From: Escherichia phage AV111
Sequence record: OR352941.1
Length of the DNA stretch: 64,000 bases
Strand: one strand, 5' to 3'
Positions within the stretch are counted from its first letter, which is position 1. Each line of letters opens with the position of its first letter. Positions 4,715 to 61,304 of the stretch are shown here, piece by piece. Below the pieces are notes generated by a model, which saw only the letters and a list, made by a program, of their open reading frames with translations, made no database searches and was not told the origin of the DNA. The translations under genes were made by a program, and so were the position numbers.

Positions 4715-4737
4715 TCTGTTTTCCTCATTTTGGTAGA

Positions 4738-4770
4738 GTTATAGTATCACAACTCCACCGCGTTGTAAAC
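4738..4770 (-). promoter_or_regulatory. T4-type early promoter
   Basis: plus-strand gtaaac 4765-4770; ttatagtatcac 4739-4750. Confidence 0.45.
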
Positions 4771-6838: not shown

Positions 6839-6866
6839 TTAGATTTCCTCAATTATCCATAGGAGC

Positions 6867-6896
6867 ATTATACTCTGCTCCTGAGAGTTTGTAAAC
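6867..6896 (-). promoter_or_regulatory. T4-type early promoter, -10 TATAAT flanked by inverted repeat AGGAGCA / TGCTCCT
   Basis: plus-strand attata 6867-6872, gtaaac 6891-6896; inverted repeat arms 6861-6867 and 6876-6882. Confidence 0.5.
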
Positions 6897-17459: not shown

Positions 17460-17473
17460 TTTTATTTGATAGG

Positions 17474-17505
17474 GCTACTATAACATAACCCTATCTGATT
17501 GTACA
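17474..17505 (-). promoter_or_regulatory. T4-type early promoter (variant -35 TGTACA), -10 flanked by GATAGGG / CCCTATC inverted repeat
   Basis: plus-strand ctactataac 17474-17483, tgtaca 17500-17505. Confidence 0.4.
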
Positions 17506-32100: not shown

Positions 32101-32411
32101 TTTAATTTACTCAAGTATTCAATAGGACGTTCATTATTCAATAAGAATATTGTAACACTATTCTTCTAGGTTGTACATATGATTTTTCATCCGTACAACA
32201 TATTCCTGATATATCTCTTCTACTGGTTCCTGGAACTTAAAATCAGCTCCCAGGAATTCCTCAAAGCACTCCTGCTCACGTGTACGCATACCTGATATAG
32301 TATTCTCTAAGTTATGACTAATAGCCTTTACCCTTATGTTTCTGTTTACGCTTAGACTCTTTAAAGTTTTTCTTCTTGTCCTTATGGACAGACGCCTTAT
32401 TGAAATCGTGC

Positions 32412-36427: not shown

Positions 36428-36472
36428 GCTAATTTCCTCAATTGATTAATGTTTTTGTAATCCATGAGAGCA

Positions 36473-36500
36473 TTATACTCTGCTCTCAAGAGTTTGTACA
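36473..36500 (-). promoter_or_regulatory. T4-type early promoter for ndd; -10 TATAAT flanked by GAGAGCA / TGCTCTC inverted repeat
   Basis: plus-strand attata 36473-36478, tttgtaca 36493-36500; arms covary with the 6867 promoter. Confidence 0.5.
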
Positions 36501-37218: not shown

Positions 37219-37242
37219 GATGTTATCCTCTTTTAGATAGGA

Positions 37243-37274
37243 CTACTATATCATAGTCCTACTTAGTTGTAAAC
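37243..37274 (-). promoter_or_regulatory. T4-type early promoter, -10 flanked by TAGGACT / AGTCCTA inverted repeat
   Basis: plus-strand gtaaac 37269-37274; actactatatcat 37243-37255. Confidence 0.4.
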
Positions 37275-42698: not shown

Positions 42699-42718
42699 GA
42701 AGCTCCCGAAGGAGCTTA
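42699..42718 (-). terminator. hairpin AAGCUCC-UUCG-GGAGCUU 3' of the HNH gene
   Basis: aagctcccgaaggagctt at 42700-42717. Confidence 0.4.
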
Positions 42719-43528
42719 GGACATCCAACACATTTTATAACCTTTGCAGGTTCTGTTAGGATTATTTAATGCTTTCAATATATTAGAAGACCCTATATCT
42801 AAATACTCTCTTAATTCATAAAGATAGTTAAAATCAATAGTTTCACCTGTTTTTACACTTGTGATTCTTATAGGCCTTCTTTCATATTTAGATTTATACA
42901 ACTCTCTAGTCTTAGCTTTAGTTTCTTCTGACCTAGGAGTGTATGGTTTAAATCCTTTTGTTTTAAATGTTTCCATTCTTGATTTAGTTATTTTATCCCG
43001 GTGTTCTTTTGTTTTTACAGGTGCTTTTCGCCCATTCTCCCGAGATAACTTGTTGGCCTGTATTATTTTATCTATTGCTTCTTGCGTATGAGTTTTACCA
43101 TAAAATGGATTTAATTCGCCTATACGTTGTGAAGCAATATGTGACATTAATTCTCTTGTTGCTTTAGTATGTTTTTTACCTTTAAATGGGTTGCCATTTT
43201 TAGCAATCCATTCTTTCATAAATCTAGAGTGCTCTTTAGAGAATTCTTGTTTAAGCCAATCATAATCTCTAGAATTTCTAGCTCCCATGTAAAAAGCTCT
43301 AATAGCCATAAGCATAGAACGGTTCTTATGAATTTTATAAAGCAATAAATGGGCGATAAAATGCTCTCTAGGGGTCATTTTAACTAGATTTGATTTAGCA
43401 TTACTCCCGCCCATAGATTTAGGCAAAATATGGTGAGTTTCAGTATAATTAGGAATAGTGCTGCGGTTTTTAGCCGCAGCGATAAGTTTATCATAAATTT
43501 TACGATAATTCATTATCCTAGCATCCAA
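42716..43528 (-). CDS. HNH homing endonuclease (MobA-like), 270 aa
   Basis: Mob-family N-terminus MNYRKIYDKLIAAAKNR...HHILPKSMGGSNAKSNLVKMTPREHFIAHLLL plus NUMOD-like repeats (NPFKGKKHT, NPFYGKTHT). Confidence 0.8.
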   Translation of the reverse strand: MDARIMNYRKIYDKLIAAAKNRSTIPNYTETHHILPKSMGGSNAKSNLVKMTPREHFIAHLLLYKIHKNRSMLMAIRAFYMGARNSRDYDWLKQEFSKEHSRFMKEWIAKNGNPFKGKKHTKATRELMSHIASQRIGELNPFYGKTHTQEAIDKIIQANKLSRENGRKAPVKTKEHRDKITKSRMETFKTKGFKPYTPRSEETKAKTRELYKSKYERRPIRITSVKTGETIDFNYLYELREYLDIGSSNILKALNNPNRTCKGYKMCWMS

Positions 43529-45333: not shown

Positions 45334-45396
45334 GTTGTCTCCTCGTTATGAAGGTATTCTATCATCCGAAATCTAAAGCAAAAAGGGCCGAAGCCA

Positions 45397-46644: not shown

Positions 46645-46666
46645 AATATTCTCCTCTTGTTTTGAT

Positions 46667-46700
46667 AGGTCTATAGTATCATAGACCATAGTTGTTGTAC
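46667..46700 (-). promoter_or_regulatory. T4-type early promoter (variant -35), -10 flanked by GGTCTAT / ATAGACC inverted repeat
   Basis: plus-strand ataggtctatagtatcat 46665-46682; tgtaca 46695-46700. Confidence 0.4.
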
Positions 46701-46701
46701 A

Positions 46702-47226
46702 TCATTTTAGCAAAATAAAATCAACTTGTTCTGCCAATGAACGTCTAAACATTAATTGACATCTTCCGAGGATGAAATCAGGTGCTTCATAGACCGCTAT
46801 GTAGTATCCTTTGGCTTTCAGGAGTTCAACATCCACCTGGTCATCAAACCATGCATAAACCGCGACAACACTTTCAAATCCAAAATAGAACTCTTGAGCC
46901 CAATCTTCGTTCAATTCAAATGTGTGCTCAACTCTATAGTATCTTAAGATATTTTGTTCAAGGAGTTTGTCTTCATTTACTGTAGGACGATTAGGGACAT
47001 TATAGTTGTCGCCGTGATGGTAGAAGTTACCTGAGAGTATTCCATGCTTATCAAGGAACTCCCATGTTTCTTCAGAGTTGTCGGTGCCTGACCAACCGTA
47101 CGGCGAGCGAGGTTCTTTATTCCAAGAGGTTTCCCAAATTCTGACGGCTTTACCATCTTCGATAGCAATTCCTGGTAATGATTCACGTTGAGTACAAAAA
47201 CTACGTTCTACGCGGTAAACTAACAT
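46702..47226 (-). CDS. hypothetical protein, 174 aa
   Basis: ORF track; ATG with GAGGAG SD. Confidence 0.5.
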   Translation of the reverse strand: MLVYRVERSFCTQRESLPGIAIEDGKAVRIWETSWNKEPRSPYGWSGTDNSEETWEFLDKHGILSGNFYHHGDNYNVPNRPTVNEDKLLEQNILRYYRVEHTFELNEDWAQEFYFGFESVVAVYAWFDDQVDVELLKAKGYYIAVYEAPDFILGRCQLMFRRSLAEQVDFILLK

Positions 47227-47232
47227 ATTATT

Positions 47233-47281
47233 CTCCTCTGGTTGATGTGGTTATAATATCAAAACCAGAGGAGAAGTAAAC
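47233..47281 (-). promoter_or_regulatory. T4-type early promoter with 11-bp perfect inverted repeat flanking the -10; downstream arm overlaps the SD of the 46702..47226 gene
   Basis: arms ctcctctggtt 47233-47243 and aaccagaggag 47263-47273; ggttataatatc 47249-47260; gtaaac 47276-47281. Confidence 0.5.
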
Positions 47282-47285
47282 AACT

Positions 47286-47705
47286 TTATGCAAAAGATGC
47301 TGGACAATATTTTTTGATTTGGAACTCAGGAACTACCATGAACTGTCCAGCGAAAACGATGTTATAAAGCTTAACACCATCTTCTACCCATTGGTCCGAA
47401 ATAAAACCAGCAACTTGATTCGTTGTCCACGGTGTTCCATCTGTTGCCGCAGCAATGGTGAACTCGTGGTCTTTTACAACTAAAACCGATCTGCACAGTT
47501 TCCATTTGAACGCGCGTTCTTCTGGCTCGATGAATTGGCTTTTAACGTAACCAATGTTACCATCAGCGTCACGAACTTTAACTTCGTTACGTCCAAAAAC
47601 CGGATCACTCACAGAAAGAACTTCGACCAACTTACCAGCAACTTTAGAGCGAGAAGCATCTGATACGTGTACATAATCACCAATAGAGAGATTTGCAATA
47701 TTCAT
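47286..47705 (-). CDS. hypothetical protein, 139 aa; member of a tandem paralogue triplet
   Basis: C-terminal motif GFISDQWVEDGVKLYNIVFAGQF shared with the next two ORFs. Confidence 0.55.
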   Translation of the reverse strand: MNIANLSIGDYVHVSDASRSKVAGKLVEVLSVSDPVFGRNEVKVRDADGNIGYVKSQFIEPEERAFKWKLCRSVLVVKDHEFTIAAATDGTPWTTNQVAGFISDQWVEDGVKLYNIVFAGQFMVVPEFQIKKYCPASFA

Positions 47706-48800: not shown

Positions 48801-48830
48801 ATTATACTACAACCAAGGATGGTTGTAAAC
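48801..48830 (-). promoter_or_regulatory. T4-type early promoter with CCATCCTTGG spacer motif (opposite orientation to the 8271 copy)
   Basis: plus-strand attatact 48801-48808; caaccaaggatggttg spacer; gtaaac 48825-48830. Confidence 0.45.
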
Positions 48831-52712: not shown

Positions 52713-53294
52713 CTAAAAATTCAACATTTTCAAATGAATGATTTTGTATAATCGAGATAAAGGGTCATATTCTAAGTCTTCAATTTCCACAATCTCAAAT
52801 CTAGAGATACCTGAGACCATGTACTCTTGTTCAGATTCAATCATATCTAGGACGTCAACACGCTTTTCTTCCATAATATGCTTAGGGTTCTTTCCGGCGA
52901 GTACAATGTTAACCATGTTTTGGTAGTAATCAAAAATGAATGGAGCATTCCTGAGACTAAGAATAGTGTACGTCTGATACTCCCAACTCCCAGAGAATTG
53001 ACGAGCTGTACTGAAATCAGTTGTGAACGATGTTACTCGTCCAGGAGACCAATGACATCCAACAGAAAGAAGTGAAAGACGTTCTACTTCTTCTGGAGTT
53101 ACACCACGGTAGAGTTCTACTGGTACTGTAGAAGTCATATGCTTACGAACAAGATGGTCTAATTCATAGTGGAAATCCGGGTCTTCCTTAGAATCGGTGC
53201 AAGCCCAGAGAATGTTTTGTTCTTGTTTAGTGAATTTGCTATCAATCAGATTTGTTAGGTATTCACGTTCTTGAAGTTCAGATTGACATGTCAT
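52713..53294 (-). CDS. modB: ADP-ribosyltransferase (ModB-like), 193 aa
   Basis: ART signature YRGVT, SFTT, EQEYMVSG. Confidence 0.6.
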   Translation of the reverse strand: MTCQSELQEREYLTNLIDSKFTKQEQNILWACTDSKEDPDFHYELDHLVRKHMTSTVPVELYRGVTPEEVERLSLLSVGCHWSPGRVTSFTTDFSTARQFSGSWEYQTYTILSLRNAPFIFDYYQNMVNIVLAGKNPKHIMEEKRVDVLDMIESEQEYMVSGISRFEIVEIEDLEYDPLSRLYKIIHLKMLNF

Positions 53295-53309
53295 GATAGA
53301 CCTCCATTT

Positions 53310-53349
53310 AAAGATAAGCCTATCATAACACGAGAGGAGGGAATGTAAA
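53310..53349 (-). promoter_or_regulatory. T4-type early promoter
   Basis: plus-strand gtaaac 53344-53349; ataagcctatcataacac 53323-53340. Confidence 0.35.
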
Positions 53350-53510
53350 CTACTTTTTAAGCTTTCCTACTAAAGGTCCATCAGGGCCAGGTTGTTCTAA
53401 CATGAATAACGATGCTTTAAAAAGCAATGTTAACCCTTTCACCATTCGATACCATGTCTCAAAGTCTTTTTCCTTGATTTCTAGTAAAAATTTCTCTTTC
53501 AATTTATCTT

Positions 53511-54335: not shown

Positions 54336-54533
54336 TCGCAGCTCCCTGAGTCCGAACTACAATCGGAATAACTTGAACCAGAATCTCCAGACCAGGATGA
54401 TACGTAAGAATGATTATAACTTGAAGAGTTTGAAGCAGACTTAGGACGAATAACTTCTTCCATCATGCCGTCACCAATGTATTCCCAACTTTTTTCATGT
54501 GTATCAGGAATAGGCATCATACCTTCGCCTGGT

Positions 54534-59314: not shown

Positions 59315-59352
59315 ATAGGACTACTATACCATAGTCCATCTATAATGTAAAC
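59315..59352 (-). promoter_or_regulatory. T4-type early promoter, -10 flanked by GGACTA / TAGTCC inverted repeat
   Basis: plus-strand gtaaac 59347-59352; tgataggactactatacc 59312-59329. Confidence 0.4.
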
Positions 59353-60347: not shown

Positions 60348-60501
60348 TAATAAATGCTTTAACTAATGCATTGTTCACTTCAGCAAGTTGTACCGTAACC
60401 CACTCGATTTCTTCGCGATCACCTGATAACATGATATCTTTAGTGAACATCTCACCGCTTTTAAACCAACCGATAAAAGTAACTTTAGTTAATTTGCTCA
60501 T
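60310..60501 (-). CDS. small protein, about 63 aa; size and position fit the T4 dmd (61.5) antitoxin slot
   Basis: Start at ATG 60499-60501 overlapping the upstream stop (ATGA); identity to Dmd not verified. Confidence 0.4.
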   Translation of the reverse strand: MSKLTKVTFIGWFKSGEMFTKDIMLSGDREEIEWVTVQLAEVNNALVKAFINDEKVFEADFRG

Positions 60502-60815
60502 ATTTCCTCGCAAAAGGCCCATTCAGCGTGATAAACTGTAGCACCTTTAGTATTATTCATTTGAACTACGTCTACCGGAGAAATTACTCGATAGAGACGT
60601 GGTTCACCTCCATAAGAGCGTGCTGCTCGTCCTGCATAAATCTTTGCTAAACCGATATCTTCAGTAAAGAATACACGATCCAAGTTTTTCTTACGTCCAG
60701 TTTCAGACAGAACTCCTGTTTCTTCAGGAGGACAAAGCATGTTTTCGATGTTAGCTGAACTACTTGAACCGTGATAAAAAATCTTAAATTCTGCTTTACA
60801 ATCGATGGTTTTCAT
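60498..60815 (-). CDS. hypothetical protein, 105 aa
   Basis: ORF track. Confidence 0.5.
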   Translation of the reverse strand: MKTIDCKAEFKIFYHGSSSSANIENMLCPPEETGVLSETGRKKNLDRVFFTEDIGLAKIYAGRAARSYGGEPRLYRVISPVDVVQMNNTKGATVYHAEWAFCEEI

Positions 60816-60822
60816 TTTGTTC

Positions 60823-60870
60823 TCCAGTAGTTGATAGGTCTATAATAACACAACTACTGGAGAAGTAAAC
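60823..60870 (-). promoter_or_regulatory. T4-type early promoter with 10-bp perfect inverted repeat (TCTCCAGTAG / CTACTGGAGA) flanking the -10
   Basis: arms 60822-60831 and 60853-60862; ggtctataataac 60838-60850; gtaaac 60865-60870. Confidence 0.5.
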
Positions 60871-61245
60871 TTAAAAACGTAATTTAGATATATCCGCGTT
60901 GATTTCGTTTTGGTTTGCGTCGTATGCAATTAAACGAACCGCTTTAGATGGGTCATTCAATGCATAGAAATGATGGAACATTGCTCGAACGATATCACCA
61001 TTTACGAGTTCTACCTGGATAGGAGAACCTTTTTCGAGTTGGAAATGTTCATAAGCTTTGATGGTTCGTAGATAATCAAGTTTTTGATTTCCAGCTCCAA
61101 CTATTTGTACGATACGTTTGCCTGTGTTTTCCATATGAGATACAATAGTTTTAGGAGCAAGAATAACGTAGGTTGCCAGCGGAGAAACTACTTCAACAGT
61201 TGTGTTTTCGGTGATTGCAGTAAAAATTGCTTGAGACATATTCAT
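60871..61245 (-). CDS. hypothetical protein, 124 aa
   Basis: ORF track. Confidence 0.5.
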   Translation of the reverse strand: MNMSQAIFTAITENTTVEVVSPLATYVILAPKTIVSHMENTGKRIVQIVGAGNQKLDYLRTIKAYEHFQLEKGSPIQVELVNGDIVRAMFHHFYALNDPSKAVRLIAYDANQNEINADISKLRF

Positions 61246-61271
61246 AATGTTTTCCTCTTGGTTTGTGTAAG

Positions 61272-61304
61272 TACATCATATCATGCCTAGAGGAAGATGT
61301 AAAC
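61272..61304 (-). promoter_or_regulatory. T4-type early promoter
   Basis: plus-strand gtaaac 61299-61304; near-inverted repeat cctcttgg / cctagagg flanking the -10. Confidence 0.35.

Follow-up and report, generated by a model that had tools for sequence, protein, structure and literature searches.

About half of the early promoters in a 64,000-nucleotide (nt) stretch of Escherichia phage AV111 (sequence record OR352941.1; hereafter the window) sit inside short inverted repeats. At two of them, one being the promoter of the gene motB.2, the downstream arm of the repeat contains the Shine-Dalgarno (SD) sequence of the gene below. We propose, with a probability of about 0.6, that such promoters belong to composite cassettes in which a strong early promoter overlaps a hairpin. 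In cassettes of the ribosome-binding-site (RBS) type, the hairpin would silence RNA that reads through from upstream; the other hairpins would be of the type known as promoter-early stem-loops (PeSLs). An initial annotation of this DNA had described the repeats around the -10 elements and interpreted them as SD-sequestering structures; its observation is confirmed and its interpretation partly supported.

The motB.2 cassette, like all promoters below, is named by its first -35 coordinate, 47281. Read on the minus strand, it runs GTTTAC-TTCTCCTCTGGTTTTGA-TATTAT-AACCACATC-AACCAGAGGAGAA-TAAT-ATG, where TTCTCCTCTGGTTTTGA is the 17-nt spacer and begins with TTCTCCTCTGGTT, followed by TTGA. The -35 hexamer GTTTAC (47276-47281) precedes the 5' arm TTCTCCTCTGGTT (47263-47275), which makes up the first 13 nt of the spacer. 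The -10 hexamer TATTAT (47253-47258), preceded by TGA, lies within the 19-nt loop, and the 3' arm AACCAGAGGAGAA (47231-47243) carries the SD sequence GAGGAG and ends 4 nt before the ATG. Together the arms form a perfect stem of 13 base pairs (bp), 2 bp longer than was first annotated, and the hairpin has a folding energy of -23.8 kcal/mol (z = -4.75 against dinucleotide shuffles). With the start taken, as for every promoter, 7 nt after the -10, promoter geometry predicts initiation at 47246, between the two arms. The promoter, GTTTAC-N17-TATTAT, is of the early class and not a T4 late TATAAATA promoter. The genes of this region are all read from the minus strand. By RB69 annotation, the gene downstream is motB.2 (46702-47226, 174 amino acids, ATG at 47226) and the gene upstream is a MotB-like paralogue. 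The 3-kb stretch around the site shares 94-96% identity with the Mosigvirus (RB69-like) phages ECCR664, NBG1, HX01, ST0 and RB69; on sequence grounds the window is Mosigvirus, i.e., from an RB69-like phage of the T4 type.

A paralogous cassette (60870; 60815-60870, minus strand) lies upstream of a homologue of RB69ORF040c. Its arms, TTCTCCAGTAGTTG (60851-60864) and CAACTACTGGAGAA (60820-60833), form a 14-bp stem with the SD in the 3' arm (-25.0 kcal/mol, z = -5.77 against dinucleotide shuffles). The product of the gene below it (60498-60815, 105 amino acids, just upstream of dmd), called an ADP-ribosyltransferase in some records, has no counterpart in T4. Among T4-like phages, those of Klebsiella, Enterobacter, Acinetobacter and Aeromonas have conserved it at 64-77% identity.

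That a downstream arm overlaps an SD in at least one case, as had been claimed, thus holds at both 47281 and 60870. For these sites, read-through RNA was modelled from 60 nt upstream, and promoter-proximal RNA from the predicted start. In the read-through RNA the SD is then predicted to be accessible with a probability of 0.03 (47281) and 0.01 (60870), as opposed to 0.69 and 0.61 in the primary transcript, and the SD pairs with the spacer with probabilities of 0.96 and 0.99, respectively. When cassettes were exchanged in silico, 0 of 24 foreign cassettes occluded as well as the resident one, at 47281 and at 60870 alike.

In a variant of the RBS type, it is the AUG that pairs with RNA of the -10 region. 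In the modB-type cassette 53350 (53287-53350, minus strand), the -10 region at about 53317-53332 pairs with SD-proximal sequence and the AUG at about 53287-53303. The probability of AUG-cassette pairing is 0.99, and one of 24 foreign cassettes occludes as well. In the weaker cassette 61304 (61245-61304, minus strand), TTCCTCT (61289-61295) pairs with AGAGGAA (61252-61258), and the AUG pairs with a probability of 0.78. Cassettes 1189 and 17956 are weak cases of the RBS type. SD sequestration at the RBS-type hairpins is well supported by these folding models; the case is strong at 47281 and 60870 and plausible at 53350 and 61304, and the model does not apply to most other examples.

An SD-occluding, promoter-embedded hairpin is kept at motB.2 in five genera and in three geometries; these genera share neither the sequences nor the layout of the hairpin, nor even the gene upstream. 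This comparison drew on annotated phage genomes; a scan of IMG/VR gave only three near-identical loci. The Mosigvirus arms TTCTCCTCTGGTT/AACCAGAGGAGAA have their counterpart in TTCTCCTCATG/CATGAGGAGAA of Dhakavirus (VR5, IME281, 04086). In Tequatrovirus (T4, NiC89, EL), a 17-bp stem, TCCTCGGT.TAGTTGTGGT/ACCATAGCTACTGAGGA, has the -10 in its loop (-23.7 kcal/mol). In Kanagawavirus PEi20 and Mosugukvirus PM2, both arms follow the -10 (GACCTCCT...AGGAGGTC); the left arm lies at about -6 to +2, so that the predicted start is still in or after it. In all five genera, the proximal motB.2 transcript would lack the 5' arm and carry the SD in the 3' arm. Within T4 positions 1-76000, the early promoters of regB, denV, nrdC.8, motB.2 and modB likewise have spacer or -10 RNA that pairs with the SD and/or AUG, and those of ipI, ipII, ipIII, mobD.2 and dmd carry self-contained hairpins of 10-14 bp around the -10.

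How such a cassette might act can be deduced from its layout. Initiation at a strong sigma-70 early promoter would occur some 7 nt past the -10. The spacer, and the 5' arm within it, would thus be transcribed only by polymerases coming from upstream, and the hairpin would form only in read-through RNA. At RBS-type cassettes, this RNA would be silent for the downstream gene, with its GGAG hidden from RegB, which cuts GGAG in early SDs and is blocked by secondary structure (PMC1702504). The transcript from the gene's own promoter would be open and would be translated before RegB cuts it; RegB and promoter shut-off would together end its use, leaving a pulse of immediate-early expression. For motB.2 and a few other genes, probably only transcripts from their own promoters would be translated. 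Tight and spacer hairpins, which avoid the RBS, would correspond to PeSL stem-loops at the 3' end of the upstream cistron; they could serve in attenuation, in protecting that 3' end, or in keeping promoter RNA off the next RBS.

The published behaviour of RegB targets fits an open proximal and a closed long transcript. Durand et al. 2006 (PMC1702504) reported that RegB cleaves the SD of T4 motB.2 in vivo and that modB RNA acts like a structured molecule. In the 47231-47243 arm, GGAG followed by AAUAAUA agrees with the RegB target rule of that study, and the GGAG with its A-rich 7-mer matches the RegB/S1 target, for which T4 motB.2 is a documented substrate. RegB, however, recognises the open SD; the hairpin would be a separate layer, one that is undescribed for motB.2 in that report.

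The arrangement would mirror that of T4 e, soc, 49 and I-TevI, in which a late promoter lies inside an RBS-sequestering hairpin (reviewed in PMC3014915) and expression is restricted to late times. In both, the SD and/or AUG is in the 3' arm (here at 47281, 60870, 53350 and 61304), the promoter is so placed that its own transcript would lack the 5' arm (here predicted from promoter geometry), and longer transcripts are predicted to be silent. The present cassettes differ in that their promoter belongs to the sigma-70 early class, whereas that of the T4 genes is a late TATAAATA promoter of gp55, and in that the 5' arm is placed in the -35/-10 spacer. The timing, as read from the sequence, would also be inverted: the first minutes here, late there. 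The hairpins of Aeh1 mobE and other homing endonucleases, cited in the same review, also occlude an RBS within a longer transcript but are not made from promoter elements.

To what extent is the pairing a property of the whole promoter set? The initial annotation had counted about 25 minus-strand promoters of the form GTTTAC-N17-TAnnAT. Taken literally, this pattern gives 7 matches in the window (0.22 expected), all on the minus strand; the number 25 is reached with a relaxed pattern (N17-18, TAnnnT, one -35 mismatch allowed), which returns 25 intergenic early promoters on that strand. A 26th, overlooked by GTTTAC-based searches, lies upstream of cef (46668-46703, minus strand; -35 ATGTAC, -10 TACTAT, arms GGTCTAT/ATAGACC around the -10). 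Its -35 overlaps the motB.2 stop codon, a site noted within 46645-46703. These 25-26 sites on the gene strand have a sigma-70-like layout (-35, 16-18 nt, -10) and are preceded by an AT-rich tract; the 3' end of the cassette carries the SD and start codon.

In a swap test, each left half (-35 and spacer) was matched against all the right halves (-10 to ATG) in the set. For the 25 promoters, the mean longest Watson-Crick stem was 6.2 with their own halves as opposed to 4.77 after swapping, and the mean duplex energy -10.9 as opposed to -7.8 kcal/mol; 0 of 20,000 permutations reached either excess (p<5e-5). Mirror, direct and parallel-complement controls of the test showed no enrichment, which was confined to the reverse-complement sense, and an artefact of composition was therefore rejected. 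T4 gave the same picture (first 76 kb, 24 candidate early promoters), with longest stems of 6.5 as opposed to 4.78, energies of -12.1 as opposed to -7.8 kcal/mol, and again 0 of 20,000 permutations reaching the observed values. About 13-14 of the 25 window promoters have a stem-loop-forming inverted repeat in or beside them, and in about 12 the arm pairing does not exceed the swapped background. The earlier statement that the -10 is bracketed by an inverted repeat in many promoters is thus right; for all of them it would be wrong.

The arms also covary, as had been proposed. All six arm pairs quoted at the outset are present, exact in sequence and position. Between the paralogues 6896 and 36501, two compensatory double changes keep the pairing; between 60870 and 47281, both sides have changed at three of the five inner pairs; and 17506 and 37274 share their register with one A-T to G-C exchange. 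Among Mosigvirus orthologues, O157 typing phage 3 has an A-T to G-C change in the 60870 stem. The 36762 stem, in which 8 of 10 positions pair in the window, is paired at 10 of 10 (two G.U) in three relatives, with one double change. We aligned 13 distinct members of the TTCTCC...GGAGAA cassette family and counted pairs against 500 shuffles. Of the alignment cells, 91.6% pair, compared with 83.2% in shuffles, none of which reached the observed value. Four pairs, comprising 11 cells, have changed on both sides (for cells, 0/500 shuffles). The covariation score is 0.205, compared with 0.051 in shuffles (0/500 reach it) and at most 0.052, i.e., at least 4-fold lower, when the register is slid. The view that selection acts on pairing and not on a fixed half-site is supported by these compensatory changes in paralogues and orthologues: pairing appears to be the conserved feature. 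A fixed protein operator was rejected on the grounds that arm sequences differ between promoters.

Several observations weigh against the proposed role of the cassettes. First, over all 25 promoters the occlusion by the own cassette averaged 0.259 and that by swapped cassettes 0.272 (p = 0.68), so there is no effect at the level of the set, and SD sequestration is specific to a few cassettes. Only two strong and two to four weaker cases among the 25-26 promoters fit SD or AUG occlusion. Second, the outer stem UUCUCC/GGAGAA is partly generic, since pyrimidine-rich spacers pair with many SDs; 17% of swapped constructs exceeded 0.5. Third, complementarity in close relatives, which had been set as a test, is upheld by compensated changes at 60870 and 36762 and departed from at 47281, where the 5' arm has an uncompensated mid-stem C.A in JS09 and an uncompensated stem-end change in typing phage 3. 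Fourth, template-switch mutation can create or repair perfect palindromes, and cassettes of one family move by recombination, so part of their 'conservation' is common descent. Finally, the transcription starts, the read-through RNA and every functional consequence are inferred from sequence.

The tight -10 hairpins were among the least occluding cassettes in the exchange test because they fold on themselves. A test on ranks gave no significant support for a bimodal set, in which own cassettes are unusually good or unusually bad occluders. The idea that SD occlusion is common to all of the promoters was rejected, given the equal swap means and the fact that most hairpins end 17-42 nt before the ATG. 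Thus, sequestration in read-through RNA, as first annotated, stands at 47281 and 60870 and falls as a general rule. Four of the six arm pairs first quoted (6861-6882, 36467-36488, 711-737 and 17469-17489) end 22-37 nt upstream of the ATG and leave the SD untouched.

The hairpins fall into three types, according to whether the 3' arm is the RBS, the stem closes tightly around the -10, or the whole hairpin lies within the spacer. About nine are tight (37274, 17506, 4770, 745, 36501, 6896, 32178, 59352 and 36762), with loops of 4-11 nt and a 3' arm that ends at -1 to +7 relative to the predicted start and 17-42 nt upstream of the ATG; four of the six arm pairs first quoted are of this tight type. 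About four are of the spacer type (48830, 9484, 8301 and 34191). Some 13 hairpins end before the SD, their 3' arms containing neither SD nor AUG.

A stem-loop within an early promoter is in itself a published architecture. Arbiol et al. 2010 (PMC2839356) described PeSLs in RB49/phi1, which lie in the -35/-10 interval or extend over the -10 and one of which cut lacZ read-through like rrnB T1; Comeau et al. 2014 (PMC4122927) added T4/PST and KVP40/nt-1. Both papers interpret PeSLs as terminators and recombination cassettes, and neither mentions translation or ribosomes. The initial annotation had been made without knowledge of these T4-type stem-loops. The present cassettes share with PeSLs the intergenic sigma-70-type early promoter, the AT-rich upstream tract, the SD and ATG at the 3' end, and a stem-loop, which may occupy the -35/-10 interval, extend over the -10 or lie in another part of the cassette. 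Like PeSLs they recur many times in a genome, in regions that hold small early genes, and at the one locus looked at, 47281, the cassette edges coincide with homology breakpoints between phages. They differ in their host genome, PeSLs having been described for the above phages and not for RB69-like ones, and in stems that are not G/C tracts and, in all but one case, lack a U-tract.

It is possible, if short of probable, that all these hairpins are attenuators, terminators or 3'-end stabilisers of the upstream gene, doubling as homology patches for modular shuffling, and that their overlap with the SD is incidental. The lacZ attenuation and the 13 or so hairpins that end before the SD favour this explanation. 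So do the edges of the motB.2 cassette, which coincide with recombination boundaries: homology to Tequatrovirus RB3/RB10/RB51 ends exactly at the -35 (within 47100-47420), and that to phages ST2 and F2 ends at the ATG (one locus looked at). The 48830 spacer hairpin, TTACAACCA-TCCT-TGGTTGTAG followed by TATAATCTTTTT (48807-48828, minus strand), has a T-run and was flagged as terminator-like. It is, however, the exception: no T-run follows any other strong inverted repeat in the window, although canonical UUCG terminators occur elsewhere in it, and the 47281 and 60870 hairpins combine the lack of a U-tract with loops of 17-19 nt, unlike a terminator. An intrinsic terminator was rejected for all repeats but 48830 on the missing T-run. 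This reading also leaves unexplained why, across genera and geometries, the 3' arm coincides precisely with the SD or AUG of motB.2, modB and regB. The explanation is not exclusive and is compatible with RBS sequestration at the few cassettes concerned.

The distribution of terminators provides a further indication. No terminator lies upstream of any strong repeat in the window. The five promoters 61304, 54819, 34191, 17956 and 1189 are closely preceded by classic UUCG-tetraloop hairpins, the majority of which have a T-run, and none of the five has a strong promoter-embedded repeat; the paralogue 17956 shows decayed pairing. In Yersinia P8 and Dhakavirus MN04, orthologues of the 60870 gene have gained an intrinsic terminator just upstream, and the 5' arm is lost or weakened. 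Loss of pairing below a terminator suggests, from a small number of cases, that the arms matter only where read-through occurs. Read-through transcripts could be fed by candidate middle promoters, namely MotA-box-like sites (TGCTTNA, 11-13 nt, TANNNT), some of which lie upstream on the same strand. In total such sites number 12 as opposed to 3.6 expected, most of them on the gene strand (for example at 54413-54437 and 45356-45380).

A second, less probable explanation is that the SD hairpins shield RNA from RegB: by hiding intergenic GGAG in long polycistronic transcripts they would let downstream cistrons survive, and silencing would be a side effect. RegB is inhibited by structure, and 16 resistant GGAG sites of T4 lie in stable structures (PMC1702504); the GGAG and AAUAAUA of the 47231-47243 arm are moreover its preferred context. 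The in vivo cutting of the T4 motB.2 SD implies, however, that some of the RNA, at the least, is open, and hairpins of the 53350/modB type sequester not only the GGAG but also the AUG. Shielding and translational silencing are inseparable by sequence alone, and we consider shielding as the primary function unlikely.

Could the repeats have arisen with no selection on RNA pairing at all? Template switching at quasi-palindromes, the Ripley model of mutagenesis, was first worked out in T4. Intrastrand switching of this kind might perfect quasi-palindromes in AT-rich, recombining cassettes, and the 48830 hairpin bears a typical signature of it: AACCA-TCCT-TGGTT in the window is AACCA-AGGA-TGGTT in six relatives, an exact inversion of the loop. 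Mutation alone can therefore generate some apparent covariation. The perfect stems of 13-14 bp are likewise expected products, and cassette paralogues are scattered through the genome. Template switching is, however, a mutational mechanism and not a function, and it leaves the gene-specific conservation of SD occlusion unexplained. T4 and Mosigvirus, with sequences that differ, both show the excess pairing; orthologues that are otherwise identical carry compensatory changes at single pairs; occlusion of the motB.2 SD is kept through three unrelated geometries; and pairing decays where an upstream terminator is present. As a full account, we regard a by-product of mutation and recombination as quite improbable.

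Translational coupling, whereby downstream translation would need ribosomes that finish the upstream gene and melt the 5' arm, is suggested by upstream stop codons 0-4 nt before the -35 with no terminator between. The distance from the stop codon to the beginning of the 5' arm, however, is 6 nt at 60870 and 10 nt at 47281, and a terminating ribosome, judged by its footprint, would open at most 1-2 bp of the 13-14 bp stem; from these distances coupling was judged very unlikely. Least credible of all is a DNA-level element, a cruciform or a dimeric protein that modulates promoter opening, for although the tight hairpins keep a nearly fixed register around the -10, in the window as well as in T4 and Aeromonas phage phiAS4, their arms differ too much between promoters for a common operator, no candidate protein was identified, and a shared origin of the cassettes may be all that lies behind the register.

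The stem-loop-in-promoter architecture being known, what is apparently new is its translational reading at early promoters, as a variant of the promoter-in-RBS-hairpin mechanism. RBS sequestration by early promoters was not found in the reachable literature, which excluded older subscription sources; T4 reviews give only the late-promoter genes and homing endonucleases. T4 is the textbook case of temporal control, and the rapid shut-off seen for many early proteins has been attributed to early-promoter shut-off and RegB. If the proposal holds, tightly packed early genes with their own promoters and no terminators between them can have different expression windows, PeSL stem-loops gain a second, testable function, and a mobile promoter cassette can bring translational insulation along with it. 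T4 motB.2, modB and regB, for which genetics and RNA methods exist, offer a direct test.

A broader version is more tentative, and we rate it rather doubtful. In T-even phages generally, the spacer or -10 of strong early promoters would be a built-in anti-SD or anti-AUG. Genes such as motB.2, modB, regB, denV, nrdC.8 and the ORF040c family would be translated only from their own promoters in the first minutes; on the long transcripts of the delayed-early and middle classes, which cross them later, they would stay untranslated and be shielded from RegB. Companion hairpins, by folding promoter RNA onto itself, would have the opposite effect and leave downstream RBSs free in read-through RNA. The whole would amount to a genome-wide timing code, post-transcriptional, so far unrecognised and embodied in the promoter cassettes.

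The remaining promoter hairpins in the window are all on the minus strand. The tight ones include GTAGGACTAT/GTAGTCCTAT (37237-37262), which ends at about +2 and 18 nt before the ATG, and GATAGGGTTAT/GTAGCCCTATC (17468-17495; 11 bp including G.U). Around other -10 elements lie TTGGTACAGGTT/GACCTGTACCAA (704-738), ending 28 nt before the ATG; GGTGGAGTTGTG/TATAACTCTACC (4732-4759; 12 bp including G.U); TGAGAGCA/TGCTCTCA (36465-36488) and its paralogue AGGAGCA/TGCTCCT (6861-6882); AAGAATA/TATTCTT (32143-32165); and GGACTAT/GTAGTCC (59318-59337), the core of which is the same as in the T4 dmd promoter hairpin. The regions 1118-1189 and 675-745 are paralogous cassettes close to each other, of which 745 has a 12-bp hairpin. 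In cassette 1189 the right-arm-like CTTGTACCA is retained, but the left arm is another one and a UUCG terminator precedes it; this cassette therefore resembles a chimera or a decayed copy. Elsewhere in the window, an open reading frame of 265 amino acids (42716-43513) directly follows the topoisomerase gene; its size and position match a phiC120 gene annotated as 'homing endonuclease', and the gene after topoisomerase is missing in RB69, JS09, typing phage 3 and moskry.

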